A stretch of DNA of 64,000 nt from sequence record PZ386977.1, one strand, 5' to 3'. This document shows positions 3,720 to 53,746 of the stretch, one piece after another. The notes beneath the pieces are model-generated. The model did not search any database and had not been told where the DNA came from. It was given only the letters and a program-made list of their open reading frames with translations. Position numbers and translations under genes: made by a program. Each line of letters opens with the position of its first letter. The stretch's first letter is position 1. This stretch comes from a phage.

Positions 3720-4277
3720 TTAAAGATGAAGATACCAACCGTTGTAGTTGCTCTTACGAACGATTTTCTTTAGGTCTTCATGGTCTCCCACGAACTTTAT
3801 AGAATAAGAGAAGACGTCAGGTGAGGTTTCTTTGACATTCAATATAATAATACAGTCTGCAACTCGATGATTAAGGAAGGGCCCTATGTTGATTCCGTTG
3901 CCACCCGGATAATCACCACTGTATCCTGTGGTAACAGAAATCCATTTAGAATCCATCTGATGTGTCTTGACTTCTACACGAATTCCACAATATTTAGGAT
4001 GGGCTAACACGTCCCACGCATACGTGTACGGGTCTTCTACGTCTTCAATACCTTTATTAACATATCCGTCTAGCCAATTTGCTACTACATACTCTGCAAA
4101 GACTGCAACCTTACAACGTCGAACTACGTCTTCTTTTATTTGACCTGGATCTTGTTTCAACGAGTACCGAGCAGTGTCAGCAATCTTCACTTTCATTTCA
4201 CTAGTCAAAAACTCATTCGACAGGATAAATGTCGGAAGATTCTTCAGTCTCAACAGTCCCAAGTTCGTCTTTACCAT
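3720..4277 (-). CDS. hypothetical protein, possibly DenB-like endonuclease IV (start trimmed to internal ATG)
   Basis: ORF 3720..4340 trimmed to ATG at 4277 with AGAGGT RBS gives 185 aa, the size I recall for T4 DenB which follows rIIB; no catalytic motif recognised. Confidence 0.4.
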   Translation of the reverse strand: MVKTNLGLLRLKNLPTFILSNEFLTSEMKVKIADTARYSLKQDPGQIKEDVVRRCKVAVFAEYVVANWLDGYVNKGIEDVEDPYTYAWDVLAHPKYCGIRVEVKTHQMDSKWISVTTGYSGDYPGGNGINIGPFLNHRVADCIIILNVKETSPDVFSYSIKFVGDHEDLKKIVRKSNYNGWYLHL

Positions 4278-4500
4278 AGATACCTCTGATGTGTAGTTCG
4301 CCAAAATAAATGCGGTCTCCTTCTTCAAGATAGTTAGCATCTACAGGTGGAATTTCATTAACAACTTCGTCGCATTCTAACCAGCCGTAGTGTGCATCAC
4401 CAGGATGTTTTACCAATTTAGCACAATAAACTGATTTACACTTATGATGACCACGAAGATTAGCAATTTTGGATTCTGATACGTCAAATGGATGAATCAT
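4213..4500 (-). CDS. hypothetical protein (95 aa)
   Basis: ATG ORF with AGGGG RBS just downstream of the rIIB terminator; 3' end overlaps next ORF out of frame. Confidence 0.4.
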   Translation of the reverse strand: MIHPFDVSESKIANLRGHHKCKSVYCAKLVKHPGDAHYGWLECDEVVNEIPPVDANYLEEGDRIYFGELHIRGIYGKDELGTVETEESSDIYPVE

Positions 4501-4513
4501 AATTACCCCTAAA

Positions 4514-4536
4514 GAAAAAAGGGGACCGAAGTCCCC
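4514..4536 (-). terminator. rho-independent terminator after rIIB
   Basis: GGGGAC-TTCG-GTCCCC hairpin followed by TTTTTTCTTT on minus strand. Confidence 0.65.
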
Positions 4537-4541
4537 AATTA

Positions 4542-5489
4542 TTATTCTGCAAATAATTCAGTAACGTCTGAAATTACTTCATAACGACAAGTACGCATCT
4601 TAGCATCACCATAGTCAACCGGGATGGATACAACATCACGTGGATGAACTTTAACCTTAACAACTTTATCTGAGCTTGAACCAAAGTGGCGAATATAAGA
4701 TTTAGCACAAACGTGGAGACCGCGAGAACAGGTTTGAGTATCATCGTCGTTAACTCGAGTACGAGGCATTGAAACAACTTTACCTGGGGAGTTATCAAAT
4801 GTACCACTATAGCAGTCTAAATAGTCCTTACGAACTACTTTCCACGCATAGAAATACCCATCTTCAGTGATTTCAATATCATTTGCAACCAAGAAGTCGA
4901 ATAAACGTTGTACAGCTTTTTCGCTCGGGTTTTCTAACAGGTTTTCAAGGAACGGCAGATAGAATTTAAAGTCTTCGCCTTTTTCCATGGAATCAATAAT
5001 ACGATTAACCAGTCCTGAACGAATTTCTATACCTTGATAAAATAAACTACCACCTTCAATAGTAACATTACCATCAACAAACTTACTAATAGCTTTCTTG
5101 ATGTTAATAAGTTCGACAGCTTTACTAAGGTTTCCTGCGACCAGATTAGCTTTAATTTCTTCAAAATTTGCATGACTTGATGGGGTCGCATTGTATGCTA
5201 CGCGTCCTTCAATAATTGAAATAAATTTAGATGACGCGTTCCATACGATTTCAGGACGATGTCCGCCGATAATAGGTTCATCATTTTCTGGAACTTCTTC
5301 GATTACATAAGAGGCATCGTTTGCTTCAGGGACAACGCCTTCTGCTTTAAAATTCTTAACAATCTTACGAAGAGTATCTGTTGAAATGTCGAAGTAATCG
5401 GCAATTTCTTTACGAGTCCATTTGCCTGATTCAACCAGGCCGTAAGCTTCTAACTGTTCTTCTTGGGACAAGCATTTGATATTGTACAT
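4542..5489 (-). CDS. rIIB: rIIB protein (membrane-associated lysis-inhibition/rapid-lysis protein)
   Basis: 315 aa; N-terminus MYNIKCLSQEEQ matches my recollection of T4 rIIB; immediately downstream of rIIA. Confidence 0.8.
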   Translation of the reverse strand: MYNIKCLSQEEQLEAYGLVESGKWTRKEIADYFDISTDTLRKIVKNFKAEGVVPEANDASYVIEEVPENDEPIIGGHRPEIVWNASSKFISIIEGRVAYNATPSSHANFEEIKANLVAGNLSKAVELINIKKAISKFVDGNVTIEGGSLFYQGIEIRSGLVNRIIDSMEKGEDFKFYLPFLENLLENPSEKAVQRLFDFLVANDIEITEDGYFYAWKVVRKDYLDCYSGTFDNSPGKVVSMPRTRVNDDDTQTCSRGLHVCAKSYIRHFGSSSDKVVKVKVHPRDVVSIPVDYGDAKMRTCRYEVISDVTELFAE

Positions 5490-5498
5490 AATGTTTCC

Positions 5499-7712
5499 TT
5501 ATTTGGCCGCTTCCACGGCCTTCATGAATTTAACGATTTGAGCGACCTGTTCTTTAGAAAGAGTACCACGTCGTCCCATGTATTCTGACACAATATGATA
5601 ATTGGTTTCGAATTCAATAACCATTTTATCATCATTATCGTAAGCATTATCTTTAAGCTTATCGAAAATTTTAGCACACAATTCTAACTTCCTGTTCAGG
5701 TCTCTGTTTTCAGCACCTGCGAATCGATTCCATCCCCAACGATTATTTACTGTTGAGAGTTTTGCAAAATCTTTACTGATTTCTTTGTTTTTAGAGCTAA
5801 AATACTTACTAAGGAAGTTAAGCTCTTCATTACGAGTAATATGATTCAAATAAGGCTGTGCTCTACGACTTGGTGATACATACTCATCATAATCCACTTT
5901 ATCGATTAGCGTAATATAGTCATTAATTGATTTTTCGAACAAGCATTCTACTTCACCAAGTTTACGAACTTTTTTAGCAATCTGTGGACGAACTACAGTG
6001 AACTCTTTAATACCTGACAAATCAGCAATACGGGTCAAGAAATTGGAGTCATAGTTCAACCAACCTTTATCTGCGTCAAGACATTCAGCATTAGAACGAT
6101 TACGAACTATAGCATAACCTTGGATTTCATCTGCTTCACTTGCCGGAATAAAGAGGTCTTCTGATACCCAAACATCGTTTTCATTCTTAAAGAATCGATG
6201 AGCACTTGGCGATTTAGGACGAGGCTCGTTAGTCCGTTTCCTGACTTCAATCCATGGCTTAACGATTTGTAAAAGCTCTGAAGTCTTGTACATGTTAATG
6301 TTGTCGCCATCAAAGATAACTTTAAGGCGTTCCAGAAGTTTCATTGCATCTTCGTCTGTAGGGTCAACGAATAGTACACTTTTACCAAAACCGCGTGGAA
6401 CTTTACCAGTTAATTTAACCTCGTCTTTAGACATTTCAATTGAATTAAGAGCTCGCATTAATGGAACGCGTCCCTTAACGTCGTCAATAACGATTTCAAC
6501 ATTTTTAATGTTAATGCCAATCAGGCTGTTAATTGAAATGGTCGATGATGAGCTACCACTTTCACGAATACGACGAAGACGAGGGGATTCAACGATATCG
6601 TATACAACGCCAAGATTACACCACTCAGGCCCCATTTTAAAACGTTTGTACAACTCAGAATAAGTTAATTGTTCTTTAGAGTATTTCAGTGATTCAATAT
6701 TAGACCCGGCCTTTTCCATGTATTTACGAGCGGTATAGCCAAGAGAATCAATTTCACGGAACACATGACGTGGGTATTTACAATCAATCCATTTCTTAGA
6801 ATCTTCAGCGAACAATTTAGCATCGATTTCTGCAACTCGTTTATGGATATTTGCTACTGTACGTTTATCAAATGACAATGCTTCACGAGACGGAGCTACG
6901 TCTAGTTCACCCATAGGGAATTTAATATAAGCTGTAGTGCATCGTGTCATCATCCATGTTTGTTCTTTAATAACACTTCCAATTGGATATACAATACCAC
7001 CATAAACAGCCATGATATTACCACGTTCACCCCATGGAGCTTCCTTGGCCAAATATACATCGTCAAATTCAGGGAAGTATTTAATATCTTTAACACCACG
7101 AACTTCTGCAATATCACCTAGAGGACGCATAACATAAGCAATTTCGGATGCAAACTTTTCAAAATCTTCTGGGTTAACCGGTACGACTACTTCTACACCC
7201 GTACGGTCATCAGGACCCATCTTATCTACAAAGGTTGGCTTAATTTGTGGACCTGTGTCATCTTGGTAGATTACGTAACCACGAACTTCGCCGTTGTGAT
7301 AAGACGTAAGGTTAAACGTATCAGTATATGCTAATGGAGCTTTAGAACCGAGTCCAAATCCACCAATGAAATCGTTGCTCGATGTTTTAGTTGAAGCAAA
7401 ATATGAGTTATAGATTCCTGGCTCTTCGTCATTACCTCGAATGGTGAAATCGCTCATACCAGGACCAAAGTCTCGAACTACAAAGCGTGGGTCTAAACGA
7501 CCTGGAGCCTGAACAATAAACTTATCAGTGCAACCATTAAGAATTTGTCCATCGATACAGTTTGTAATTAATTCACGTACACAAGCCAATTCTTTGTTTG
7601 TATAAAGGTCATTAGACAAAATCTTATAAACTTTGCTATTGCCTTGAATAGTGAATGCTGTGCTCTTACCGCCTGAACCAATAATCGTTTCTTTAGCCGT
7701 TTCAATAATCAT
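5499..7712 (-). CDS. rIIA: rIIA protein
   Basis: 737 aa; N-terminus MIIETAKETIIGSGGKST (GHKL-like ATPase start); size and position match T4 rIIA. Confidence 0.8.
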   Translation of the reverse strand: MIIETAKETIIGSGGKSTAFTIQGNSKVYKILSNDLYTNKELACVRELITNCIDGQILNGCTDKFIVQAPGRLDPRFVVRDFGPGMSDFTIRGNDEEPGIYNSYFASTKTSSNDFIGGFGLGSKAPLAYTDTFNLTSYHNGEVRGYVIYQDDTGPQIKPTFVDKMGPDDRTGVEVVVPVNPEDFEKFASEIAYVMRPLGDIAEVRGVKDIKYFPEFDDVYLAKEAPWGERGNIMAVYGGIVYPIGSVIKEQTWMMTRCTTAYIKFPMGELDVAPSREALSFDKRTVANIHKRVAEIDAKLFAEDSKKWIDCKYPRHVFREIDSLGYTARKYMEKAGSNIESLKYSKEQLTYSELYKRFKMGPEWCNLGVVYDIVESPRLRRIRESGSSSSTISINSLIGINIKNVEIVIDDVKGRVPLMRALNSIEMSKDEVKLTGKVPRGFGKSVLFVDPTDEDAMKLLERLKVIFDGDNINMYKTSELLQIVKPWIEVRKRTNEPRPKSPSAHRFFKNENDVWVSEDLFIPASEADEIQGYAIVRNRSNAECLDADKGWLNYDSNFLTRIADLSGIKEFTVVRPQIAKKVRKLGEVECLFEKSINDYITLIDKVDYDEYVSPSRRAQPYLNHITRNEELNFLSKYFSSKNKEISKDFAKLSTVNNRWGWNRFAGAENRDLNRKLELCAKIFDKLKDNAYDNDDKMVIEFETNYHIVSEYMGRRGTLSKEQVAQIVKFMKAVEAAK

Positions 7713-29331: not shown

Positions 29332-29880
29332 TTAACGAGCCCATTTGATGATTTCTGTAATCAAACCATTACGTTCGCTTGCATTAAATCCTATAACTTT
29401 GTTAGCACCATCATGATTAAGTAATTGATACGTTTGGATTTTGTTATGAATTGCAAACTCTTCAAAATGTGAAATGACTGTATTAAAACCGAATGAAGAC
29501 AAAGTAATAAGGTCGTCTTCAAAACTTTCAGTCATTTCGTTACGTGTTAAAATAATTGTGAACACATCATGGTTTTGGCAAAGACGAACATAATCCTGCT
29601 CATAAACATCAAGAACAGAGTCCGCATCTTGTCGAATACGTCCATAAACCCAGTTACTAATATATCCACGGTCTAACAGATAAATCTTAGTAGGGTCTAA
29701 ATAATTCAACATCGTTTCGAAACAGCCAACTTCATTTCTAGACTTAACATCGAAACGTCCATCAACTGTTCGTTTAGGGAAATCAATCTTTACATATCTT
29801 TCACTAATTTCCATTATGTCATTAATGAAAGTTGTTTTACCAGCATTATCCGGGCCATCTACTAAAATAATTTTAGCCAT
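29332..29880 (-). CDS. P-loop kinase-like protein (nucleoside/nucleotide kinase fold)
   Basis: 182 aa; Walker A GPDNAGKTT and LDRGYIS (DRY-like motif of dNK/TMPK kinases); located in the T4 beta-gt interval. Confidence 0.55.
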   Translation of the reverse strand: MAKIILVDGPDNAGKTTFINDIMEISERYVKIDFPKRTVDGRFDVKSRNEVGCFETMLNYLDPTKIYLLDRGYISNWVYGRIRQDADSVLDVYEQDYVRLCQNHDVFTIILTRNEMTESFEDDLITLSSFGFNTVISHFEEFAIHNKIQTYQLLNHDGANKVIGFNASERNGLITEIIKWAR

Positions 29881-29881
29881 T

Positions 29882-30781
29882 TTATTCCTCGATTACGACA
29901 TCTTCGTATTTAGGTATATTATACGGTGAAGAAATTAAAGCATTAAAGTAGATGAACTCACCAAGACCTGGATGGAATACTTCTTCAGGATTTTCGAAAT
30001 ATTGAATCTTCGGACGTCCTTTAAGAATTTGATAGTACTCAGTTTTAGTTGGATTAAAAATTCGAATCAGCGCTTCTTCAGGATACTTATTTCTGTCGAA
30101 ACTATTATTTGGATCAGTTATATAAAGCGGTTGACCTAATTGAATTGCGCATTCAACCACTTGTTCAAAACGATAGCATGGGTCACTAATTCGAAATGGA
30201 TGAAAAATACCATCTAGATGAATAGGAGCCAAATCACCTACAAGACGCTGCATGACGGAAGGACATATAACTTTCTGCGTTACGATAATCTTATTACCAT
30301 CTGCACCTGCGTTAACCAGCACTTCTTTTTGACGTTCATTCAACACAGTAGTTTGAAGTGAACGATTAACAGACAACATGTCGGTTTTTAAGAATTCATC
30401 AATATAAAAACGTGGTTTATTAGGGTCTGCAGTGATATTGAAATTGAATTCTACGTCAAAAGCGCCATCATATCCAGTGATATCTGTGATTAGAAAATCA
30501 CAATCATAATAAGCAATTAATGAATCAACCACAAATTCATTTTCAGACCAGAAATATTTACGAGTGTTATACGCGTTATCTTTATACCATAATGGAACAA
30601 ACTTAAATTCTGGGAAAAGACGTTCACATTCTTTAATATCAGATGCATTACGTGGATATGTAATCACATCACCTGGATTAGCACGGTGCAAATGAAGTTG
30701 GAAGTTGCCATCCTTAAGGATGGCATACTGTCCAGTTTCATAAGACCGCATACTCAAGATTGGTACGCGGAAAATAGCCAT
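29882..30781 (-). CDS. hypothetical protein (299 aa) in the beta-gt slot; candidate DNA sugar-transferase
   Basis: ATG ORF translationally coupled (TAATG) to gene 42; no recognisable motif; positional inference only. Confidence 0.5.
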   Translation of the reverse strand: MAIFRVPILSMRSYETGQYAILKDGNFQLHLHRANPGDVITYPRNASDIKECERLFPEFKFVPLWYKDNAYNTRKYFWSENEFVVDSLIAYYDCDFLITDITGYDGAFDVEFNFNITADPNKPRFYIDEFLKTDMLSVNRSLQTTVLNERQKEVLVNAGADGNKIIVTQKVICPSVMQRLVGDLAPIHLDGIFHPFRISDPCYRFEQVVECAIQLGQPLYITDPNNSFDRNKYPEEALIRIFNPTKTEYYQILKGRPKIQYFENPEEVFHPGLGEFIYFNALISSPYNIPKYEDVVIEE

Positions 30782-31497
30782 TAGTCAAGGAATCCTTTAA
30801 CATAATCAAAATCACGTTCAAACACATGGGCACTTACCATGGTATGAGTATAATCACCAACTTCTACACCGCATTCGTTAGCGATATAATGAAGTAATTT
30901 TCCTTGGAGATAAAAATCCAACTGCATAACAACAGCACAGTTCTGAGAACGCATATGACAGTGGGTATAAAGCTTACCATCACGAATATAATAAGTTACT
31001 GAGTCAGTACATGGATATTCAAGTGTTTCGTCCGAATCAAGCAAAGCCTGATCAGAACTTTCTAGAATTTGGAACACAACTCTTCGAGAGTTAGGTTTTT
31101 CTTTAAGTTCTTTTAGAAGAGTTGGTAATTGGGCCGCAATGCGAGGACCATAGAAAGTGTTGAAGTTCGCCGGCAAAACATCTGATTTTGGTTTAGAAAT
31201 AAATTTAGCGACATTAGGATATGCCTTAAACGCTTCTTCTGCGTTGGTACCACCAGAAATCATAAACTTCCAGAAGTCTTCGGCATATTCATAAGAGATG
31301 CGGTTAATACGTGGGTCGGTCATTTTGAATGATGACGGATTGTCAACAACTACTGTCATGGACCCAATTTCATTACAACGTCCAATACGAGAATCAGTTA
31401 CGAATTCCGGGTTTTCTAAAATTTCACGATTGACTGCTTTAAATGCGGTTTGAAAATCTGCGGCTTTGATATATTTCATTGTGTTATGTTTTCCCAT
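30781..31497 (-). CDS. 42: dCMP hydroxymethylase (thymidylate-synthase family)
   Basis: 238 aa; PCTDSVTYYIRD and MRSQN motifs typical of TS/dCMP-HMase fold; position matches T4 gene 42. Confidence 0.7.
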   Translation of the reverse strand: MGKHNTMKYIKAADFQTAFKAVNREILENPEFVTDSRIGRCNEIGSMTVVVDNPSSFKMTDPRINRISYEYAEDFWKFMISGGTNAEEAFKAYPNVAKFISKPKSDVLPANFNTFYGPRIAAQLPTLLKELKEKPNSRRVVFQILESSDQALLDSDETLEYPCTDSVTYYIRDGKLYTHCHMRSQNCAVVMQLDFYLQGKLLHYIANECGVEVGDYTHTMVSAHVFERDFDYVKGFLD

Positions 31498-31516: not shown

Positions 31517-31542
31517 ATTATATACTCGATTCGTAAAGCTTA
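31517..31542 (-). promoter_or_regulatory. candidate MotA-dependent middle promoter for gene 42
   Basis: minus strand AAGCTTTA (MotA-box-like), 11 nt, TATAAT, about 20 nt before ATG. Confidence 0.4.
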
Positions 31543-31779
31543 TTTGAATTTCTTGGCAGTGTTGATATACCGTAAAGCTTCAGCATCGATACTTCCAAGA
31601 ACACTATGAAGAAATGCATCAGCGTAGTATTCCAATTGAACAGGTTCTTTAATCACTTTAGCCGCTTTGGTTTCAAACAGGCCCATAAGGGCCTTTTTAA
31701 GAATTTGTTCGTTAGTGTTCAGTTTAATAGTCAAAATCTCTTCATTAAGTTGATGATTAAAAGTTTTTCTAGAAATCAT
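31540..31779 (-). CDS. hypothetical protein (79 aa)
   Basis: ORF coupled (ATGA overlap) to the upstream 386-aa gene; not membrane-like, so not Imm. Confidence 0.45.
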   Translation of the reverse strand: MISRKTFNHQLNEEILTIKLNTNEQILKKALMGLFETKAAKVIKEPVQLEYYADAFLHSVLGSIDAEALRYINTAKKFK

Positions 31780-32936
31780 TCCGGGTACCTCAGAGCGTCA
31801 TCAGAGTTAGTTATATCAATAATAGATATAGAGTTTTCTGCTAACCCGTTTTTAGATAATTGACGTTTATAATATCTTTCACAATATGTACACGTTGATC
31901 CGCAGATTTCATTAGCACAATCAAAATCTGGATGTCTGAACCACCTTTTTTCTAAAAAGCCATCTAACAAAGAGGTTTCAATATTTACTGTATGTGAAAA
32001 CTCGGTCTCGTTTTCAAGAGTGAAAATGGTCTCTAAAGGCTTCCACAGTTCTAACAAATTACCTTCAAACTTTTCAGAAGCATAAGCTTCAAGAACTTTC
32101 AAAATGTAGTCGGTGCTACCTGTACGTCCTGAAACTTTGAATTGAGTGATACCAATATCATTATAAAGTTTCAAATCTTGAGGACGAACAAAACGAGTTC
32201 TCAACCAGTTAAATGGGTCTGTATCACGAGCTTTAATACAGTGCTGCATTGGATATCCGTTTAAGGATTTAGCATCATCAGCTGTAACATCAGTACTATG
32301 GAAAATATAGCAAGAGTCACGATAGCTACAATGTGTTGTATACCCTTTACCAGCATTAGAACAGAACTCATTTACAAGAACTTCAAATATTATATTGTTC
32401 TTATTGCAAAACTCTGCTGCACGCTTCAGGAAAGAAACTGAACGGTTCTTATGAATTCCGCAACAGACTTTTTTGATGTTATATTGGTCGTGCAAGTATT
32501 TGATTTGAGTTACAGCATCGACATGTAGAATTGTTGAAACTTCAATCTCAATGTCTTTATTGACTTCACGAACAATTTCCATAACAACAGGGTTAGCGAT
32601 AGTAATACGCCATACGCCTATTGACCAAAGATACTGAACATAATCCTGAATAGCTTTCTTCTTCCACTCGACTAGTTCTCTTTTTGAACCAGGATTTATC
32701 GTGTTGAGTGTATAGTTAAAGCAAATACCTAATTCGTTACAACGTTTAACGTAATCTTCTAACATCTTTTTGTCAACGTCAGGAAGCCTAAAATCAGGTC
32801 TGGCTGCTACAAAAGCCATTTCTCTTGTAGAGCCATATACTTCGTTTATCAAGCTATTAGGATAGGTTTTATTGAGCTCTACGATTTTATCAAGAAGAGC
32901 TAAATCAAAATTCGTTCCGATTTTAAAAGTATTCAT
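31776..32936 (-). CDS. Cys-rich hypothetical enzyme (386 aa), part of the modification cassette
   Basis: C-terminal cluster CANEICGSTCTYC plus further conserved Cys; no confident family assignment. Confidence 0.55.
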   Translation of the reverse strand: MNTFKIGTNFDLALLDKIVELNKTYPNSLINEVYGSTREMAFVAARPDFRLPDVDKKMLEDYVKRCNELGICFNYTLNTINPGSKRELVEWKKKAIQDYVQYLWSIGVWRITIANPVVMEIVREVNKDIEIEVSTILHVDAVTQIKYLHDQYNIKKVCCGIHKNRSVSFLKRAAEFCNKNNIIFEVLVNEFCSNAGKGYTTHCSYRDSCYIFHSTDVTADDAKSLNGYPMQHCIKARDTDPFNWLRTRFVRPQDLKLYNDIGITQFKVSGRTGSTDYILKVLEAYASEKFEGNLLELWKPLETIFTLENETEFSHTVNIETSLLDGFLEKRWFRHPDFDCANEICGSTCTYCERYYKRQLSKNGLAENSISIIDITNSDDALRYPE

Positions 32937-32993: not shown

Positions 32994-33380
32994 TTATAGA
33001 TTCGGTTTATATGATTTAAATGTTTCGAATTCGCCTTTATTCATAAGAGCTTTGAATTCGTCAGGACGCATAGCTTTGTCGTCGATAATCCAATCATATA
33101 CTGGTTTATGTGTTAGCAAATTATGGTACTTCAAGCCAATGTTTGCCAAGTTCTGAATCAGACTTGGGAGAATGTCAATTGCTATACGTCCAGGACCTAC
33201 TGACTTCATACCACGAGCAGTGTAAAGCGTTATGGTGTGCCCTGCATCATACAGGGCATTAATGGCGGACACCATTTCGACGTCTGGTTTGAAGTTCACA
33301 TAATCACGATTGTTATTCCATTCCGTGATGCAATCATCGACATCAAAACAAAGATTAAGCATGTTTTCTACACGGTGCAT
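32994..33380 (-). CDS. small HAD-superfamily phosphatase (capless, KdsC-like)
   Basis: motif I FDVDDCITEW, motif II ITLYTARG, motif III/IV K...WIIDDKA; start trimmed to ATG overlapping upstream stop. Confidence 0.55.
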   Translation of the reverse strand: MHRVENMLNLCFDVDDCITEWNNNRDYVNFKPDVEMVSAINALYDAGHTITLYTARGMKSVGPGRIAIDILPSLIQNLANIGLKYHNLLTHKPVYDWIIDDKAMRPDEFKALMNKGEFETFKSYKPNL

Positions 33381-35065
33381 TAGATTCGTTCCCATTGATG
33401 AGTGATATCGCCACCGATTGGACGATAGGAAACACCAGTTTCTTTATCAGTTAGTACCCATTTACCAGGATTTTTTGTAATCAGAGTAGCCGTTACAGGT
33501 TCTGCTACGTCATAACTAATAGAGCCATCTTGAAGTACACGGCCCATGTTACGTAATTGCTTAGTCAGAAGTTCCATACCTTTATAATATGCGGCTACCG
33601 CTTTAAGTGGATTATTCTTGAAATAACCACCTAATGCAATCCAGATAATTGCTACTGCCAAATGATGATACTCGTTAAACGAACTCATCTTTCCATATTT
33701 GTAAACTAATGGATTGATGTTAATAGTCACATTACAAGTTGTTTCATCAATAATAAACTGACCCCAGGTCGGATTAGCATTGAATTCATCATAACCTGAA
33801 ACAGCATAAAGCACTTTAGCTTCATCATACAATTTTGGCCCGTAAATCTTGGTTTCACCAAAATATCCACGAGGGTCGATAAACTTGACTTCGCCGTTAT
33901 CAGTAATCATAGTATTACTGAAGTTCGGGTCACCATGAATAACAGAGTACTGTCCCTGAGAACGGTTATGATAACGAATAAGATGTTCTAAAGCTTGTTT
34001 CAACATTGGCTTCAGACGTCCAATCTTAGTGTAGTTCACGTGTGTGATTTTACCAAATGAATCAATCAATGGCTGAATGCTTTCACAACGATCAATAACT
34101 TTCGTATAGAACTCTTTAGTGAAATCACGGCGAACAGTTTCAGGACTTACAAAATAAGTGTCTGTGCTGAATTTCAGTGCATCTAAAATTGCATCAACAA
34201 TTTGTGGACGAGCAAGACTTGATTTGGATTTAATATATTCAAATGCCGGCTTACCTTTAATACGTTCCATTTCAAAGTTATTTTCATTAACAGAAACTAA
34301 CTGAGGGACTGAATCTGATTTCACTTTCAAATACCATGAAATCTCATCTTTCTGAAGAGCTCGACCCTGTTCGGTTAATGCGAATTTAGTTACAGTTTCT
34401 TCACCAATTTCAACTGCATTAAAACTACGATTAAGTTCACGAACTTCATGAGCTTTTTCAAGTTTAGGCATATCACCTAAATCAATTATATTCATAAGCT
34501 CTGATTTATTGAATGCGCCGCTGTAAAGGAATTCTACGAAATCACGTCCTTTGCAGTATTCATGAATTTCCTCATCAGTAGAACCCATATAGAATTCCCA
34601 GTCTTTGAACTGATAAATTCCTACAACATTACCACCTGTTGAACCTACGTTAGTGATATTTTCACCATCGAAATTATATCGACATTCATCACCCTTAACA
34701 TAGATTGCGTTAACATTCCAAGACCATGAACCAAAGTCAGGAATAATATCACACCAGTTAACAATTACGTTATGGCCATCTAAATCTTTGTATAATTTAG
34801 CAAGAGCATAAGCAGAACCATACGCTTCATCAACTGTACGAATAGTCACATTGAACCCTTCTTGCTCGCAATAAGCTCGAACAGTTTCAGCAAATTTTGA
34901 ATGAACTACTACAATAATTTCATCTGCGCCAAGGTCAGAATAAATTGTATACAAATTGCTCAGAATAGTGTCTTGTTTATAGTTAACAAGCACCTTAGGA
35001 ATATGGTGCGTTATTGGATACAAACGAGTTGCCAGTCCAGCACCAAGAATAACAGCTTTTTTCAT
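33380..35065 (-). CDS. bifunctional sugar-1-phosphate nucleotidyltransferase (N-terminal) / sugar kinase (C-terminal, APH/choline-kinase fold)
   Basis: 561 aa; N-terminal AVILGAGLATRL and GSAYAL motifs; C-terminal HGDPNFSNTMI and FIDPRG kinase motifs. Confidence 0.65.
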   Translation of the reverse strand: MKKAVILGAGLATRLYPITHHIPKVLVNYKQDTILSNLYTIYSDLGADEIIVVVHSKFAETVRAYCEQEGFNVTIRTVDEAYGSAYALAKLYKDLDGHNVIVNWCDIIPDFGSWSWNVNAIYVKGDECRYNFDGENITNVGSTGGNVVGIYQFKDWEFYMGSTDEEIHEYCKGRDFVEFLYSGAFNKSELMNIIDLGDMPKLEKAHEVRELNRSFNAVEIGEETVTKFALTEQGRALQKDEISWYLKVKSDSVPQLVSVNENNFEMERIKGKPAFEYIKSKSSLARPQIVDAILDALKFSTDTYFVSPETVRRDFTKEFYTKVIDRCESIQPLIDSFGKITHVNYTKIGRLKPMLKQALEHLIRYHNRSQGQYSVIHGDPNFSNTMITDNGEVKFIDPRGYFGETKIYGPKLYDEAKVLYAVSGYDEFNANPTWGQFIIDETTCNVTININPLVYKYGKMSSFNEYHHLAVAIIWIALGGYFKNNPLKAVAAYYKGMELLTKQLRNMGRVLQDGSISYDVAEPVTATLITKNPGKWVLTDKETGVSYRPIGGDITHQWERI

Positions 35066-35106: not shown

Positions 35107-35250
35107 CTAGTTAAAGCATTCATACTTTGCTTGTAGCCCAATCATAATCCATCCGATTATAAGAGTCGGAATCATTACTGGAGCCGTTAAGCTCCAGTAG
35201 ATAGTCATGACAAGCATCAATAGTAAAAGTCCTATTGTTATTGCTTTCAT
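35107..35250 (-). CDS. small hydrophobic peptide (about 47 aa)
   Basis: MKAITIGLLLLMLVMTIYWSLTAPVMIPTLIIGWIMIGL; ATG overlaps isomerase stop (ATGA); below ORF-track cutoff. Confidence 0.35.
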   Translation of the reverse strand: MKAITIGLLLLMLVMTIYWSLTAPVMIPTLIIGWIMIGLQAKYECFN

Positions 35251-35882
35251 TGTTCGCCTCGTAACATGGCACCTAGTGAACCGCCTGGATGGAACTTAAG
35301 GAAGTCATTAGAGGTAAATCCACGTTCAGACGAAAGGTTGATAGCGAACGTATCGATAAGCGCTAACAACAATGTAGTGGACATGGTCGGAGCCAGAGAA
35401 TTCTCATCAACCTCTACCGCGATGCCTGTACAGAACGTATAATCAAAAAGAGCTTCGTATTCTTGCGGAATGTCAGGGTTACAATGTAACAGAATCTGTT
35501 TAACCTGAGGACGAATCATACGAAGATGTTTAGCAACACCTATCATTTCTTCAGTCTTACCAGAACGACTGATGTGAACTAATACATCATTAGGTGCAAT
35601 AAATCCTGCGTCGCCATGAGAATAATGCCCGGTGTTCAAATACATGCTAGGAATACCTAGTGAAGCAAAAGTCTCGGAAGCTTTAGTTGCGATATTAGCG
35701 TTCTTACCAACACCTGTAATAATTACTCGGCTTTCATAATTACTCAGTCCAGGGCGACGAAGAGTTTCAAGAATAGCATTATATCGGGCAGAGTTTTGAC
35801 TAATTACTTTAGCCATAGTGGCAAGAGATGAAGCTTGTTTTACGATTGCGTCAATAGCGATAGTGATTGGTGTAGTTTTCAT
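35247..35882 (-). CDS. D-arabinose-5-phosphate isomerase (SIS domain, KdsD/GutQ type)
   Basis: 211 aa; ITGVGKNANIATKASETFASLGIPS...SHGDAG and HISRSGKTEE match the KdsD SIS-domain core. Confidence 0.7.
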   Translation of the reverse strand: MKTTPITIAIDAIVKQASSLATMAKVISQNSARYNAILETLRRPGLSNYESRVIITGVGKNANIATKASETFASLGIPSMYLNTGHYSHGDAGFIAPNDVLVHISRSGKTEEMIGVAKHLRMIRPQVKQILLHCNPDIPQEYEALFDYTFCTGIAVEVDENSLAPTMSTTLLLALIDTFAINLSSERGFTSNDFLKFHPGGSLGAMLRGEQ

Positions 35883-42115: not shown

Positions 42116-42832
42116 ATGAATTATAACTCAATATACGAAAAGCTTATCACCAATGCTAAATCAAGAAGTTTAGATGGTTATACAGAACGTCATCACATTA
42201 TACCACAATGTTTAGGTGGAAGTGATGATGCTTTAAACTTAGTAGACTTAACACCAGAAGAACATTATTTGGCACATCAACTGTTGGTAAAAATCCATCC
42301 AGATAATGCCTCTTTAATATATGCTGCTCGTATGATGACCATATCATCTCCTAAAGCAGATAGAAGCAAAAACAAATTATTTGGATGGCTTCGACGTAAG
42401 AATCAGGAAGTTCAAAAGAATAAAGAATTCACTGCTGAAACCCGTAAGAAAATGTCCGAGTCTGCAAAAAATAAACCAAAGATTACCTGTCCACATTGTG
42501 GTTTAACTGGAACTGAAGGAAACATGCGACGTTGGCATTTTGATAATTGTAAACAAGGTCCAACGCCTAAAATAGTAAAATTATCTGATGATGAAAAACA
42601 GAGGATAAGTTCTAAACTTAAAACAATAGAGTGGAAACTCCACACATGTGTACACTGTGGTCTAGAAGGAAAAGCTTGCAATATAGTTCCTCATGAGAAA
42701 AACTGTAAACTTAATCCTAATAGAATAAAACCTAATGTAACAATAGTGGAATGTCCATACTGCTCTAAAAGTGGTTCTATATCAAATATGAAAAGATGGC
42801 ATTTCGATAATTGTAAATATAAGCCTCATTAA
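42116..42832 (+). mobile_element. free-standing HNH homing endonuclease gene with three C-terminal zinc-finger repeats
   Basis: 238 aa; HNH core YTERHHIIPQCLGG...EHYLAH; three repeats of CPxCG...NMxRWHFDNCK; opposite strand to all neighbours; overlaps gene 46 stop by 4 nt. Confidence 0.8.
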
Positions 42833-50991: not shown

Positions 50992-51462
50992 TTAATCATG
51001 TTTCCACACCCCATCGGTATTTGACCAAAGTCGCTGATTATCTGATCCTCGCCACAGCTTTTTGGTCGGAAGACTTTTCTCATACTTCCCATCAATAATA
51101 ACATCAACATATTTAAGCATTTCTAGTTGTTTAATATCTTCAAACTTATATCCTGTCCACAACCAAATGCTTTTATTGGGATAAAGATTTTTTACTGTTT
51201 GAACAATGCAATGAACAACATCTCGGTTATCAGGATAGAGAGGGTCTCCTCCGGTTATAGTAAATCCTTCTATATAATCATTATTCAAACATTCAATTAA
51301 TTGTTCTAGTGTCTCTCCAGTGAATGGAGCACCATTTCTAGCGTTCCATGTTGATTTATTATAACACCCTTCACATTTATGCAAACAACCTGTAACGAAA
51401 AGAACGACCCTACAACCAGGGCCATTCACAAAATCGCAAGGATAAAATCTATCATAATTCAT
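50992..51462 (-). CDS. nrdG: anaerobic ribonucleotide reductase activating protein (radical SAM)
   Basis: 156 aa; radical-SAM Cys motif (CLHKCEGC); adjacent to nrdD. Confidence 0.8.
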   Translation of the reverse strand: MNYDRFYPCDFVNGPGCRVVLFVTGCLHKCEGCYNKSTWNARNGAPFTGETLEQLIECLNNDYIEGFTITGGDPLYPDNRDVVHCIVQTVKNLYPNKSIWLWTGYKFEDIKQLEMLKYVDVIIDGKYEKSLPTKKLWRGSDNQRLWSNTDGVWKHD

Positions 51463-53276
51463 TGGTGTTTAACCCTATGCATGATTTCTTTATTTTTACC
51501 GAGATTAAATCCGCGCTCGTTCGGATTTCCAAGATAACCGCATGTTCTTCTTATGGTGTTCATCTTTTTAGGATCAGTTTCTCCGCAAACTGAACAAACA
51601 AATCCATTTTCGGTAGGAGTCATTTCATGGGTACTTCCACATGTAAAACATTTATCTACTGGCATATTAACACCAAAATAATCTAAATGTTGTGCAGCAT
51701 AATCCCAGACAGCCTCAAGACCTTTTAGGTTATTTTTCATATCAGGAAGTTCAACATAAGAAATGTGACCACCTGTCGCAATGAAATGATATGGCGCTTC
51801 ACGAGAAATCTTTTCAAACGGAGTAATATTTTCTTCTACTGAAACGTGGAAACTGTTAGTGTACCAGCCTTTATCGGTAACATCCTTTACACTTCCATAT
51901 TTTTCTGTATCGAGTTTACAGAAGCGATAACAAAGGTTTTCAGCAGGAGTCGAATATAAACTAAAAGCAAATCCAGTTCTTTCGGTCCACTGTTTAAGAT
52001 GAGCATTCATTTTAGTTAAAATTTCCTGTCCAATATCACGACCGACAAGAATATTCAATTCATGAATACCAATGTATCCTAAAGACACTGAACTTCTACC
52101 GTTTTTAAATAACTCAATTATATCATCATCAGGTTTAAGACGAACCCCGAATGCACCTTCTTGGTAAAGAATAGGAGCAACAGTCGCTTTAACACCCTTT
52201 AAAGAACTAATTCTACACATCAAGGCTTCAAAACACAGATCCATTCGTTCATTAAACAACTCGATAAATTTCTGTTCATTGAACTGTGTTCCAATATAAG
52301 AATCTAATGCGATGCGAGGAAGATTCAGCGTTACAACACCGAGATTATTACGTCCATCAAGAATTTCATTACCAGTCGAATCTTTCCATACGCTCAAGAA
52401 ACTACGGCAACCCATTGGAGAAACTGGAACTGAAGAACCGGTAATAGCTTTATTATTCTTAACCGAAATAATGTCAGGATACATTCTTTTGCTTGCGCAT
52501 TCTAACGCAAGTTGTTTAATATCATAGTTCGGATCATCTTTATAAAGATTAACACCTTCTTCAACAAACATAACAAGTTTAGGAAAAATAGGAGTTATTC
52601 CATCACGACCAAGACCTTTAATGCGGTTTTTAAGAATTGCCTTCTGAATAATTCGTTCAGTCCAGTCAATTCCCGTACCAAATGTAATTGTTACAAAAGG
52701 CGTTTGTCCGTTTGAACTAAAGAGAGTATTTACTTCGTATTCATAAGCTTGGAATGCGTCATAGACATCTTTTTCTGTTTTAGATTGAGCATAATTCAAC
52801 GCATCAGCGATTTGCCATTTTTCTGCATCTTCAACATGTTTAGCGTATGTGCGTTTAACATAAGGAGAAAGTACTTTATCTACATTAGCAAAAGTCGTTC
52901 CGCCATACTGGTGTGAAGCAACTTGTGCGGTAATTTGTGCCATAATTGCAGTAGCAACTCCAATTGATTTAGGAGTTTCAATTTGAGCATTACCTAGCTT
53001 AAATCCGTTCTCAAGCATTCCTTTTAAATCTACTAAACAACAATTAGTAAATGGAAGAGCAGGAGAATAATCAATATCATGAAAATGAATAATTCCGCTT
53101 TCATGCGCTTTCATAATAAAAGACGGGACCATATTTTTGGCAATGTGTTTAGACACAATACCAGCCATAAGGTCCCGTTGAGTTGGAAAAACACGAGAAT
53201 CTTTATTAGCATTCTCGTTTAAAAGGTCTTTATTAGTTTTATGAATCAATCCTTCAATTTCTTTTTCAATTGTCAT
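51459..53276 (-). CDS. nrdD: anaerobic ribonucleoside-triphosphate reductase, uninterrupted
   Basis: 605 aa; C-terminal zinc-ribbon Cys and glycyl-radical region (TCGY); continuous ORF. Confidence 0.85.
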   Translation of the reverse strand: MTIEKEIEGLIHKTNKDLLNENANKDSRVFPTQRDLMAGIVSKHIAKNMVPSFIMKAHESGIIHFHDIDYSPALPFTNCCLVDLKGMLENGFKLGNAQIETPKSIGVATAIMAQITAQVASHQYGGTTFANVDKVLSPYVKRTYAKHVEDAEKWQIADALNYAQSKTEKDVYDAFQAYEYEVNTLFSSNGQTPFVTITFGTGIDWTERIIQKAILKNRIKGLGRDGITPIFPKLVMFVEEGVNLYKDDPNYDIKQLALECASKRMYPDIISVKNNKAITGSSVPVSPMGCRSFLSVWKDSTGNEILDGRNNLGVVTLNLPRIALDSYIGTQFNEQKFIELFNERMDLCFEALMCRISSLKGVKATVAPILYQEGAFGVRLKPDDDIIELFKNGRSSVSLGYIGIHELNILVGRDIGQEILTKMNAHLKQWTERTGFAFSLYSTPAENLCYRFCKLDTEKYGSVKDVTDKGWYTNSFHVSVEENITPFEKISREAPYHFIATGGHISYVELPDMKNNLKGLEAVWDYAAQHLDYFGVNMPVDKCFTCGSTHEMTPTENGFVCSVCGETDPKKMNTIRRTCGYLGNPNERGFNLGKNKEIMHRVKHQ

Positions 53277-53746
53277 TTTAAACTCTTTCTAAGCTGCTTT
53301 TTGAATGAAGCTATTAATTGCGTTTTAGTATCAGATTCATTATATTCAAATCCTCTTTGAAGCATCTCAGCCATCATTTCCTCTTTACCTAGTCTTGAGA
53401 ACTCTTTAGTTTTGTCTGGAACAAAATTAGGATGGATATTATTATCAGAATAATCTTGTTTCAAATAAGCAAGAAGAGATTCAAGCCATTCGAGGTAATC
53501 AACGTTTTGACCTTTAAGACCAGAACGGTTGAACTTATGCTTCATTTGACCTTCTGCTGCGTTGCACAGATTACAGAGTAACCCACGAACTCTACCTGCT
53601 TTTGGCCCGTTTAATTCGTGGTCGTGGTCAAGATGGTTACCTTGAACATCAGGGTCTAATTCACGGTGGCAAATAGGACACTTACCGTTCTGTGCATCAT
53701 AAAATTTTTGTTTTTCTTCTTTATATTTTGCGCCTGACAATAACAT
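53273..53746 (-). CDS. 49: endonuclease VII (Holliday junction resolvase)
   Basis: 157 aa; zinc-binding CPIC...HLDHDHEL...CNLCN motif as recalled for T4 gp49. Confidence 0.85.
   Translation of the reverse strand: MLLSGAKYKEEKQKFYDAQNGKCPICHRELDPDVQGNHLDHDHELNGPKAGRVRGLLCNLCNAAEGQMKHKFNRSGLKGQNVDYLEWLESLLAYLKQDYSDNNIHPNFVPDKTKEFSRLGKEEMMAEMLQRGFEYNESDTKTQLIASFKKQLRKSLK

Follow-up and report, generated by a model that had tools for sequence, protein, structure and literature searches.

The window analysed here, a stretch of 64,000 nucleotides from an RB69-like coliphage (sequence record PZ386977.1), carries a DNA-modification cassette. Within it, an open reading frame for a 386-aa protein runs from ATG to stop over 31776-32936 of the minus strand, exactly where the initial annotation had placed it, and the HAD and SIS isomerase genes to which that annotation had linked it (32994-33395 and 35247-35882) do lie in the same block. 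The features discussed below are as follows.

29332-29880, minus strand: thymidylate-kinase-like nucleotide kinase (RB69 gp45), from phrog_761
29882-30781, minus strand: candidate DNA arabinosyltransferase (phrog_3891; RB69 gp46:47), from PHROG and Table 1 of PMC13326640
30781-31497, minus strand: thymidylate-synthase (TS) homologue, a flavin- and O2-dependent 5-hydroxy-dCMP synthase and RB69 gp48 orthologue, from Pfam Thymidylat_synt and 234/238 identical residues (98.3%)
31540-31779, minus strand: orf79 (phrog_8601), translationally coupled to the U32 gene
31776-32936, minus strand: U32-family protein of 386 aa, RB69 gp50 orthologue, from the ORF, Pfam PF01136, PHROG 5757, an AF2 model and sequence identity
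31881-31919, minus strand: C-terminal Cys4 cluster of the U32 protein, C340-x4-C345-x3-C349-x2-C352 (CANEICGSTCTYC)
32079-32657, minus strand: Peptidase_U32 domain, residues 94-286, inside the TIM-barrel-like core, from the Pfam envelope and hhalign
32238-32369, minus strand: core motif E190-F-C192...C203-x5-C209-Y-x-x-H213...C233, a predicted [4Fe-4S] site, from invariance in 121 homologues and alignment with the E. coli paralogues
32994-33395, minus strand: HAD phosphatase (AfhF / RB69 gp51 type), Araf-1,5-P2 to Araf-1-P, from profile matches and PMC13326640
33380-35065, minus strand: bifunctional arabinose-5-P kinase / UDP-arabinose pyrophosphorylase (AfhE / RB69 gp52:53 type), from profile matches and PMC13326640
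35247-35882, minus strand: SIS-domain arabinose-5-phosphate isomerase (RB69 gp55 type), from profile matches
50992-53276, minus strand: anaerobic ribonucleotide reductase activase NrdG (50992-51462) and reductase NrdD (51459-53276), from Pfam (NRDD, 569 bits; Gly_radical; Fer4_12/Radical_SAM)

The 386-aa protein, which had been described as belonging to no known family, matches the Pfam Peptidase_U32 HMM (PF01136) over residues 94-286 with 42.2 bits against a gathering cut-off (GA) of 22.4 (E 7.3e-11). This is the sole Pfam domain that a Pfam scan identifies in it, and it is present in all of the homologues listed; the protein is assigned to PHROG 5757. A phmmer search of PDB sequences gave no match, so a fold comparison was needed: the best match of the AF2 model (pLDDT 91.4) is PDB 5D88, and the modelled fold is the TIM-barrel-like fold of U32 proteins. 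By profile and by predicted fold, the protein is a member of Peptidase_U32, and the identity of 383 of its 386 residues to RB69 gp50 marks it as the orthologue of that protein. The initial annotation had stated that the signature of this family does not match. That pattern, which we take to be the PROSITE-type E-x-F-x2-G-[SA]-[LIVM]-C-x4-G-x-C-x-[LIVM]-S, is indeed not matched by the protein when run as the regular expression E.F..G[SA][LIVM]C....G.C.[LIVM]S, and the site reads N-E-F-C-S-N-A-G-K-G-Y-T-T-H-C-S-Y-R-D-S-C; the mismatch is nonetheless misleading, because the HMM scores above its gathering cut-off. Judged by these comparisons, the protein belongs to a divergent U32 subfamily; Kimura et al. 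distinguish 12 subfamilies. The historical family name, used in many GenBank records as "peptidase" or "collagenase-like protease", would make it a protease or collagenase, which we find scarcely credible: the name goes back to a few old collagenase reports and its mechanism has been called largely unknown (PMC5727448), the well-studied members are tied to hydroxylation, and the genomic context is unrelated to proteolysis.

All the cysteine motifs previously pointed out are present, namely CCGIHKN (C158/C159), HCSYRDSC (C203...C209) and the C-terminal C340-x4-C345-x3-C349-x2-C352. Within a family alignment of 121 sequences, reaching about 46% identity, conservation is 100% for C158, C192, C203, C209, C233, C340, C345, C349 and C352, and reaches 98% for C177; C66, C72 and C159 are not conserved. 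Such conservation across the family argues that the cysteines are not there by chance, and the loss of the cluster from close homologues, which the initial annotation had held would speak against it, is not seen in any of the 121 sequences. The description of a conserved, Cys-rich, probable Fe-S protein in a DNA-modification cassette is supported.

Comparison of the family profile with a profile of RlhA, TrhP and UbiU (hhalign probability 96.5%, E 8.9e-10, residues 52-285) places E190, C203, C209 and C233, all invariant in the 121 homologues, on RlhA E161, C169, C176 and C192, and RlhA C169 and C176 are essential for the formation of 5-hydroxycytidine (PMC5727448). On this correspondence, the 386-aa protein is predicted to bind a [4Fe-4S] cluster. 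Three positions of the four-Cys U32 motif are aligned (C203, C209, C233); the fourth canonical Cys ligand is absent, and the conserved C158, C177 and C192 are candidates for its place. The core spacing is Cx5Cx23C, against a canonical Cx6Cx15Cx3/4C, and variants of the motif exist in UbiU and UbiV. The C-terminal Cys4 cluster, the region of which has no sequence similarity to the C-terminus of RlhA, is predicted to form another site for a metal or an Fe-S cluster, one that is peculiar to the subfamily. We also considered a radical SAM motif, since the spacing C345-x3-C349-x2-C352, with Tyr before the last Cys, would fit, yet it is C-terminal and preceded by a fourth invariant Cys; this reading was rejected because a Pfam scan of the protein found no Radical_SAM domain.

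The position of the U32 gene between the HAD phosphatase and other arabinose genes might suggest an enzyme that modifies the sugar donor (an epimerase, mutase, dehydratase or unusual transferase). The initial annotation had proposed such a role, and similar annotations exist ("putative sugar-modifying gene"; for Bas46_0144 of Bas46, "putative enzyme involved in UDP-arabinose biosynthesis"). AfhE/KdsD-like genes also often co-occur with U32. However, the sugar reported is plain D-arabinofuranose, and each step from Ru5P to UDP-arabinofuranose is covered by the isomerase, the kinase/uridylyltransferase or the HAD phosphatase (PMC13326640). Arabinosyl-5hoC is made by Acinetobacter phages that have no U32 gene, and U32 homologues are found with hexose-type genes (TAGT, GLF) or in phage neighbourhoods without any sugar genes, beside dCMP deaminase, nucleotide kinases and methyltransferases. 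As the published pathway is complete without the U32 gene, and homologues occur in neighbourhoods without sugar genes, the proposal is not supported, and we regard it as very improbable. We know of no U32 protein that acts on a sugar.

The TS homologue lies about 280 bp from the U32 gene in the same operon-like block. RB69-type DNA carries 5-hydroxycytosine, and 18O2 labelling indicates that gp48 draws its oxygen from O2 (PMC13326640). The window also encodes NrdD and NrdG, which indicates that the phage is equipped for replication in the absence of oxygen, a condition under which a synthase that depends on O2 would fail. A role as redox helper, in place of hydroxylase, would fit the adjacency to the TS homologue, the conserved Cys clusters, which lend themselves to electron transfer, and Table 1 of PMC13326640, where the label is "sugar or heterocycle reductase". 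Such a helper could be an Fe-S reductase working for the TS-type synthase, or one whose substrate is a sugar or a heterocycle. We consider this improbable, since in E. coli gp48, by itself or together with the dNMP kinase, yields 5hodC even where gp50 is absent (PMC13326640), and since U32 homologues lack a nearby TS homologue in 25 of 28 lineages. Iterated profile searches of flanks of about 6-10 kb identified no TS homologue near the distant U32 genes, and neither TS nor TET/JBP is among the 25 most frequent Pfam families of 122 neighbours. A redox helper would moreover leave the linked chorismate mutase (CM) and DAHP synthase genes unexplained.

These linked genes point to a supply of prephenate. 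An AroQ CM directly follows U32 in most T-even-like relatives other than Mosigvirus, and in every one of the 51 phage records that have a homologue of it (51/51) the CM is placed between U32 and TS. By its Pfam CM_2 scores (44.6 and 40.9 bits, above a GA of 27) and its retained catalytic residues (R11/R28/K39/E52/S84/Q88), it is a bona fide AroQ chorismate mutase. The U32 genes of distant phages adjoin DAHP synthase, DAHPS-CM fusions or stand-alone CMs, and a CM or DAHPS lies within 1.5 kb of U32 in 9 of 28 non-redundant U32 lineages. The DAHP_synth_1 neighbours were checked as possible KDO8P synthases, an identity that would have favoured a sugar role, and scored as DAHP synthase (237 bits, versus 63 for KDO8P synthase). 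A human-faecal contig with a DAHPS-CM fusion (MT837090) has no U32 within its 11.6 kb, and is thus uninformative.

A CM is lacking in the window's own lineage, Mosigvirus, in which the slot is filled by the unrelated orf79, whose start overlaps the stop of the U32 gene as ATGA. A degenerate CM was rejected for orf79, which has no CM_2 or NCBIfam match and an hhalign probability below 1%. Since orf79 and CM coexist in some phages (L018, L024, L027 and L031), orf79 is, on this distribution, a gene separate from CM.

Together, the chemistry of the U32 family and the linked CM and DAHP synthase genes point towards prephenate-dependent hydroxylation of a base. Formation of ho5C needs RlhA and that of ho5U needs TrhP, in each case with dependence on prephenate, and UbiU/V take oxygen from prephenate under anaerobic conditions; in vitro hydroxylation has so far been shown for no U32 protein (PMC10990095). 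We therefore consider it probable, on balance, that the 386-aa protein is an Fe-S U32 enzyme that adds a hydroxyl to C5 of a cytosine nucleotide without O2, likeliest converting dCMP to 5-hydroxy-dCMP, with prephenate as donor. The present analysis shows its family and fold, the conservation of its Cys and its genomic and host associations, and we infer its Fe-S binding, use of prephenate, independence of O2, substrate and product. The substrate would be bound in the TIM-barrel and undergo a two-electron oxidation, the electrons leaving via the core [4Fe-4S] site (C203/C209/C233 and one more Cys), and probably also via another cluster, held by the C-terminal Cys4 motif. The hydroxyl would be supplied by decarboxylation of host-made prephenate, as proposed for UbiU/V, RlhA and TrhP. 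Phage kinases and polymerase would then carry the hydroxylated nucleotide into DNA, for glycosyltransferases to arabinosylate. The U32 enzyme would be the anaerobic counterpart of the TS homologue next door, and whatever the O2 level, the two together could supply the 5-hydroxycytosine that fills the DNA and accepts arabinose. The divergent signature, the unaligned fourth Cys ligand with its altered spacing, the lack of a CM in Mosigvirus and the Dhakaviruses that lack U32/CM count against this reading, as does an estimate: at 37% GC and about 168 kb, hydroxylation of the whole genome would cost roughly 6e4 prephenate per genome, which is a heavy load on an unmodified host pathway. Nothing relevant that ties U32, CM or prephenate to arabinosyl/5hoC phages emerged from the literature searched.

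The company kept by U32 homologues bears on the substrate. The phrog_3891 DNA glycosyltransferase is their commonest recognised neighbour across phages, near U32 in 18 of 28 lineages whatever sugar genes are present, and one homologue is immediately followed by a gene of the TAGT (TET-associated glycosyltransferase) family, with UDP-galactopyranose mutase (GLF) also near. Others stand beside dCMP deaminase, dCTP deaminase/dUTPase and thymidylate-kinase-like genes, the last a family that recurs near distant U32 genes, and NMP-kinase/methyltransferase fusions adjoin some homologues where sugar genes are absent. This neighbourhood suggests a base-side role at the level of nucleotides, and we count it in favour of a hydroxylase. 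The same O2-independent enzyme might instead act after replication on cytosine in DNA, or on dCTP or dCDP and not dCMP. RlhA and TrhP, the characterised U32 proteins of nucleic acids, do act on RNA polymers, and TET, the usual partner of the TAGT encoded beside one homologue, acts on DNA. This variant we judge unlikely, though it deserves more weight than the other alternatives: the extra nucleic-acid-binding domains (DUF3656 in RlhA; those of TrhP) are absent from a protein that has only PF01136, the neighbours are enzymes of the nucleotide pool (dCMP deaminase, Tmk-like kinases, NMP-kinase fusions, NT5C, dNK), and T-even-type phages assemble modified DNA from modified dNTPs (PMC13326640).

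A target in RNA, with the protein modifying host or phage rRNA or tRNA to tune translation during infection as RlhA or TrhP might, is in our view highly improbable. T-even-like phages carry tRNA genes, and by profile comparison RlhA is the best-matching E. coli paralogue of the 386-aa protein. However, accessory RNA-binding domains are absent, U32 lies consistently in modules of DNA modification or nucleotide metabolism, with frames that overlap the DNA glycosyltransferase in many phages, and the host already encodes RlhA and TrhP.

The distribution of the gene shows an ecological correlation with oxygen, U32 being absent from Acinetobacter phages and present on contigs associated with anaerobes, which we count in favour of a route without O2. 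U32 matches were identified in 222 records, all at least 80% identical, and the organisms listed for them, a listing that omits 7 minor name categories, are all Enterobacterales or Shewanella. In Acinetobacter phage DLP1, the synteny is the same and HAD abuts TS, indicating that the U32/CM block is missing there. The AfhE gene occurs in 57 Acinetobacter phage records, and the absence of U32 from these phages may go back to a single evolutionary event or to very few. Dhakaviruses, which infect E. coli, have the arabinosylation genes and lack U32/CM, which shows that phages of facultative anaerobes can do without the gene. Distant U32 homologues were identified on contigs assigned to Clostridia, Erysipelotrichales, Bacteroidales and Gastranaerophilaceae, although the taxon labels of phage-like MAG contigs rest on binning, and those of Planctomycetota and BRC1 are not clearly anaerobes. 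Examples of the distant U32 phages are IMGVR_UViG_3300045988_171958 and the Phocaeicola faecalis scaffold NZ_JADNRM010000017.1.

More tentatively, and with somewhat less than even confidence, we suggest that these proteins form a previously unrecognised phage U32 subfamily of prephenate-consuming, O2-independent C5 hydroxylases of deoxypyrimidine nucleotides, which would be the sole source of the hydroxyl in phages of obligate anaerobes, would rewire the shikimate pathway of the host, and would act as an anaerobic twin in RB69-like phages. If so, the handle would then be glycosylated by phrog_3891 or TAGT transferases, or O-methylated by the NMP-kinase/methyltransferase fusions, implying undiscovered 5-hydroxy- and 5-methoxy-pyrimidine modifications of DNA and hinting at further base modifications in phages of anaerobes. 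Phage DAHP synthase and CM would make up for the prephenate spent, in stoichiometric amounts, when an entire genome is modified, in what would be the first link of the shikimate pathway to DNA modification. As a base of phage DNA, 5-hydroxycytosine has been known only since 2025-2026, and its sole known synthase needs O2. An O2-independent route would explain replication of RB69-like phages in the gut, their habitat, where they have an anaerobic ribonucleotide reductase, and would predict oxygen-dependent phenotypes relevant to phage therapy and to phage-defence assays, which are nearly always aerobic. With a small nucleotide in solution as its substrate, the enzyme would offer the first U32 system amenable to reconstitution in vitro, and with a dedicated supply of prephenate the mechanism of prephenate-dependent hydroxylation would become directly testable.

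Among known systems, RlhA (YdcP), the synthase of 5-hydroxycytidine-2501 in 23S rRNA, shares with the phage protein the PF01136 domain and a "CY..H" motif after the aligned E and Cys positions, and makes a 5-hydroxyl on cytosine, the chemistry proposed here. It requires additional C-terminal Cys, Fe-S biogenesis and prephenate (PMC5727448). RlhA is however a protein of 653 aa with DUF3656 whose target is the rRNA of a precursor of the ribosome, and differs in its core Cys spacing and C-terminal Cys arrangement; neither of its subfamily marks (DUF3656; the C-terminal Cys pair C580/C611) was found in the 386-aa protein. The dual logic of TS and U32 recalls E. coli TrhO (O2) and TrhP (prephenate, U32), which both make ho5U34, and the spread of trhO and trhP over aerobes, facultatives and anaerobes mirrors that of phages with TS only, TS and U32, or U32 only. 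The O2-dependent partner is a rhodanese in TrhO and a flavin-binding TS homologue in the phage, and the substrate is tRNA in E. coli as opposed to the DNA precursor proposed here. The protein does not share a TrhP-like architecture, its hhalign match to TrhP (probability 25.6%) covering only the N-terminal 150 residues.

UbiU-UbiV are likewise U32 Fe-S proteins, with prephenate as the proven in vivo oxygen donor and two [4Fe-4S] clusters per functional unit whose fourth ligands are non-canonical; by analogy, the two conserved Cys groups of the phage protein could be a single-chain equivalent. Unlike the proposed phage system, UbiU-UbiV form a heterodimer that works with the lipid-binding UbiT on a membrane quinone, and the protein matches the NCBIfam UbiU model with 18.5 bits, below its cut-off of 440, and UbiU or UbiV alone weakly by hhalign. 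Mk0906 (PDB 5D88), to our knowledge the only solved structure of the family, has a core of 247 residues at 14% identity, without a counterpart of the C-terminal Cys4 region.

RB69 gp48 and its HY126 homologue, of the TS superfamily, share the product and pathway proposed for the U32 protein; gp48 has an unrelated fold, uses flavin and O2, and its activity is verified experimentally, whereas the U32 role is a proposed one. Phage systems of TET/JBP and TAGT follow the same logic, in which a pyrimidine first receives its handle from a hydroxylase and the handle is then decorated by a DNA glycosyltransferase. TET/JBP enzymes oxidise a 5-methyl group in DNA with the help of Fe(II), 2-oxoglutarate and O2, whereas the U32 enzyme would act on C5-H without O2.

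The 386-aa reading frame was recovered exactly as initially annotated (31776-32936, minus strand, ATG start), in a window from the genome of a T4-like, RB69-like phage (genus Mosigvirus). The surrounding 6.7-kb stretch shares 98% identity with Escherichia phage p000v and with about 150 other records. The gene, referred to here as the U32 gene, lies within a co-directional cassette block that extends from DNA polymerase through to UvsX.

Genes of the cassette block
35247-35882, SIS isomerase, after DNA polymerase
33380-35065, bifunctional kinase/nucleotidyltransferase
32994-33395, HAD phosphatase, between the bifunctional enzyme gene and the U32 gene
31776-32936, minus strand, U32 gene, 386-aa ORF
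31540-31779, minus strand, orf79 (79 aa, phrog_8601), its start overlapping the U32 stop as ATGA
30781-31497, thymidylate-synthase (TS) homologue
29882-30781, glycosyltransferase (GT)
29332-29880, Tmk-like kinase, followed by UvsX

In the RB69 record (NC_004928.1), gp46/gp47 and gp52/gp53 are split, and each corresponding window gene (29882-30781 and 33380-35065) is a single intact ORF (299 and 561 aa), consistent with sequencing errors reported for RB69. Elsewhere, the replication genes, otherwise on the minus strand, are interrupted by a plus-strand 238-aa ORF (42116-42832) flanked by gene 45-like and gene 46-like reading frames; it had no Pfam match at E<=1e-3 and is possibly a mobile or homing-endonuclease-type insertion.

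The U32 protein contains 13 cysteines, among them all the motifs previously quoted: CCGIHKN, HCSYRDSC and the C-terminal cluster C340-x4-C345-x3-C349-x2-C352. A search of 5.8 billion proteins yielded 263 homologues, about 20 of which are orthologues in T-even-like phages (76-88% identity), the remainder forming a large metagenome set of roughly 46-58% identity. Nine cysteines (C158, C192, C203, C209, C233, C340, C345, C349, C352) are invariant across 121 homologues and C177 is conserved in 98%; E190, R206, Y210 and H213 are likewise conserved. Loss of the cysteine cluster, which would have spoken against the initial reading, was thus not seen. When compared with the four E. coli U32 paralogues, the phage-family profile matched RlhA best (probability 87%, E 4e-6), and it matched a three-paralogue profile at a probability of 96.5% (E 8.9e-10), with target E190/C203/C209/C233 aligned to RlhA E161/C169/C176/C192. 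The target lacks the fourth canonical cysteine, as do UbiU and UbiV, both of which rely on non-canonical ligands, and the C-terminal four-cysteine cluster, without counterpart in RlhA, is a subfamily feature. The initial annotation holds in part, for cassette membership and for (predicted) Fe-S binding, and its unknown family gives way to a divergent U32-family enzyme.

Residues 340-352 (31881-31919, minus strand) include CGSTCTYC, with the Cx3Cx2C spacing and the aromatic residue before the last cysteine of typical radical-SAM clusters. We rejected a radical-SAM reading, as the motif lies at the C-terminus, after a fourth invariant cysteine, and outside any radical-SAM domain. Two loci contain, a few kb away from the first U32 homologue, another paralogue that has diverged strongly (L003 13227-14360 and L062 11227-12360; phrog_5757, 61 bits; Pfam, 21.7 bits, just below GA). 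It directly follows a radical-SAM/SPASM gene, and genes for NT5C, deoxynucleoside kinase and nucleoside deoxyribosyltransferase are close by.

Those U32 proteins that have been studied well are associated with hydroxylation that is independent of O2, and not with proteolysis. Formation of 5-hydroxycytidine at position C2501 in 23S rRNA requires RlhA, which in turn needs prephenate (through PheA/TyrA acting as chorismate mutases), Fe-S biogenesis, Cys169/Cys176 and two C-terminal cysteines (PMC5727448). TrhP provides a prephenate-dependent route to ho5U34 in tRNA that works anaerobically; TrhO, an unrelated enzyme, forms this base with O2. UbiU and UbiV each carry one [4Fe-4S] cluster, and under anoxia the oxygen atom is taken from prephenate; no U32 protein has so far been reconstituted in vitro (PMC10990095).

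The product of the cassette was proposed in 2018 to be arabinosyl-hydroxymethylcytosine in RB69, in a paper whose text lacks the U32 gene. The revised structure is arabinosylated 5-hydroxycytosine, in which an ether bond joins the sugar directly to C5 (2026 NAR, PMC13326640). In that study gp48, the TS homologue, binds flavin and makes 5-hydroxy-dCMP with O2 as oxygen source, by 18O2 labelling; in vitro confirmation for a phage HY126 homologue is cited there to He et al. 2026. The window TS is identical to gp48 at 234/238 positions, and these results therefore apply to the window. The sugar route (Ru5P to Ara5P, Ara-1,5-P2, Ara-1-P and UDP-Araf) is fully assigned to the isomerase, bifunctional enzyme and HAD phosphatase, and gp50, the U32 orthologue, appears only as a table entry ("sugar or heterocycle reductase", match 5D88) without discussion (PMC13326640).

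We favour, with moderate confidence and from comparative sequence evidence, the view that the U32 protein is an O2-independent, prephenate-dependent C5 hydroxylase supplying 5-hydroxy-dCMP (or 5-hydroxycytosine) for DNA hypermodification. This would place a known kind of enzyme in a new biological role. Our literature search, whose scope did not extend to He 2026 and Mahler 2025, found no link of U32, prephenate or chorismate mutase (CM) to these phages.

Gene order, mapped over 41 viral loci and some others, provides independent, indirect evidence for prephenate use. Serratia phage LC53 and Enterobacter phage Entb_45 both have a CM gene (Pfam CM_2, 44.6 and 40.9 bits against a GA of 27) between U32, whose stop codon it overlaps, and the TS homologue, and the order KdsD-AfhE-HAD-U32-(orf79)-CM-TS-GT-Tmk, AfhE being the bifunctional enzyme gene, recurs in nearly all non-Mosigvirus T-even-like lineages. 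Some lineages have both orf79 and CM, that of the window orf79 only, and one locus (L017) neither. The phage CMs retain the residues that E. coli chorismate mutase uses for catalysis, and in a 50,697-record phage collection a homologue of this CM lay between U32 and TS in all 51 records having one. In distant phages, U32 is flanked by DAHP synthase (DAHPS; 237 bits with the DAHPS model against 63 with that of KDO8P synthase), DAHPS-CM fusions with the CM domain at the C-terminus, or stand-alone CMs; CM and/or DAHPS lie within 1.5 kb of U32 in 9 of 28 non-redundant U32 lineages.

Type I-beta DAHP synthases adjoining U32, several fused to a C-terminal AroQ CM
L040, 8411-9433
L042, 7302-8357
L051, 11079-12197
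L065, 4931-5959

A related DAHPS-CM fusion occurs on a human-faecal phage contig (MT837090, 3-920). Phage shikimate-pathway auxiliary genes thus seem to go together with this U32 family. The shikimate pathway begins with DAHP synthase, and prephenate is made by chorismate mutase. If base hydroxylation by the U32 enzyme consumes prephenate stoichiometrically, then with an estimated ~6e4 hydroxylations per genome (~168 kb, 37% GC) a raised supply would be sensible; Mosigviruses, without their own CM, would depend on host PheA/TyrA. The Cys-free orf79 is kept beside U32 in several T-even-like genera, sometimes along with CM, and may serve the U32 enzyme as an accessory factor. Its N-terminus resembles that of the CM found in phages LC53 and EcS1 (114 aa), pointing to a gene fusion.

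The commonest arrangement (18/28 lineages) places a phrog_3891 protein, of the family of the DNA arabinosyltransferase gp46:47, directly before the U32 homologue in overlapping frames, whether with arabinose genes, hexose-type genes (TAGT and UDP-galactopyranose mutase) or no sugar genes. Other contexts are PolIII-alpha/dCMP deaminase/U32, Tmk/radical-SAM/GT/U32 and, without sugar genes, GP88/[NMP-kinase and SAM-methyltransferase fusion]/unknown/U32; thymidylate kinase was the commonest family among 122 U32 neighbours in a bulk Pfam scan. The common theme is a nucleotide hydroxyl acceptor that is then decorated, which favours a base-level, probably mononucleotide-level, role. The same O2-independent chemistry acting instead on DNA or dCTP/dCDP is, in our judgement, unlikely.

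The GP88 contexts (L068-L071, about 3800-7100; L003, 5135-9098) are on contigs labelled Bacteroidales, Oscillospiraceae and BRC1. Their fusion joins a guanylate-kinase-like NMP kinase to a SAM methyltransferase, and the ~265-aa protein overlapping U32 had no Pfam or PHROG match. These loci suggest O-methylation of a 5-hydroxy-pyrimidine nucleotide, perhaps giving a 5-methoxy base; we know of no description of this type of DNA modification. RimK/glutathione-synthetase-type ATP-grasp proteins were the second commonest neighbours (6/122 proteins, counted up to 3.5 kb from U32 at 17 distant viral loci in the range L030-L054), and also match "sugar-transfer associated ATP-grasp", a hint that the modified base is decorated further. 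A conserved ~250-aa protein right after U32 in PolIII-alpha/dCMP-deaminase contexts (L002 9175-9939, L010 8050-8826) resembled NAD-dependent sugar epimerases only faintly (E 0.015).

Finally, the window encodes NrdG, NrdD and endonuclease VII in T4-like order (50992-53746, minus strand). NrdD and NrdG show anaerobic dNTP synthesis by the phage, which is thus built to replicate without O2, a condition under which its sole known 5-hydroxy-dCMP synthase, the TS homologue, cannot work. The arabinose-activation gene was found in 374 phage records, 57 of them from Acinetobacter, a strict aerobe. The U32 gene was found in 222, all at least 80% identical; among the matches listed, to which seven minor name categories do not belong, all hosts were Enterobacterales or Shewanella, which are facultatively anaerobic. 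Acinetobacter phage DLP1 has the same synteny with HAD abutting TS, the missing piece being exactly the U32-(orf79)-CM block, and the Acinetobacter absences may represent few independent events. The gene is accessory, since Dhakaviruses, which infect E. coli, carry the pathway and lack U32.

When prokaryotes were scanned at one genome per species, 12 relatives were identified, in assemblies labelled Erysipelotrichales, Bacillota, Oscillospiraceae, Romboutsia (two), Clostridium, Angelakisella, Tannerella, Phocaeicola faecalis, Gastranaerophilaceae, Planctomycetota and BRC1; obligate anaerobes account for the majority of the labels, those of MAGs resting on binning. No TS homologue was found in the fetched ~6-10 kb flanks of these relatives or of distant viral U32 loci. 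The pattern is of TS only with aerobe hosts, TS and U32 with facultative hosts, and U32 only in anaerobe-associated loci, where TS was checked locally; this distribution parallels that of trhO and trhP described by Sakai et al.
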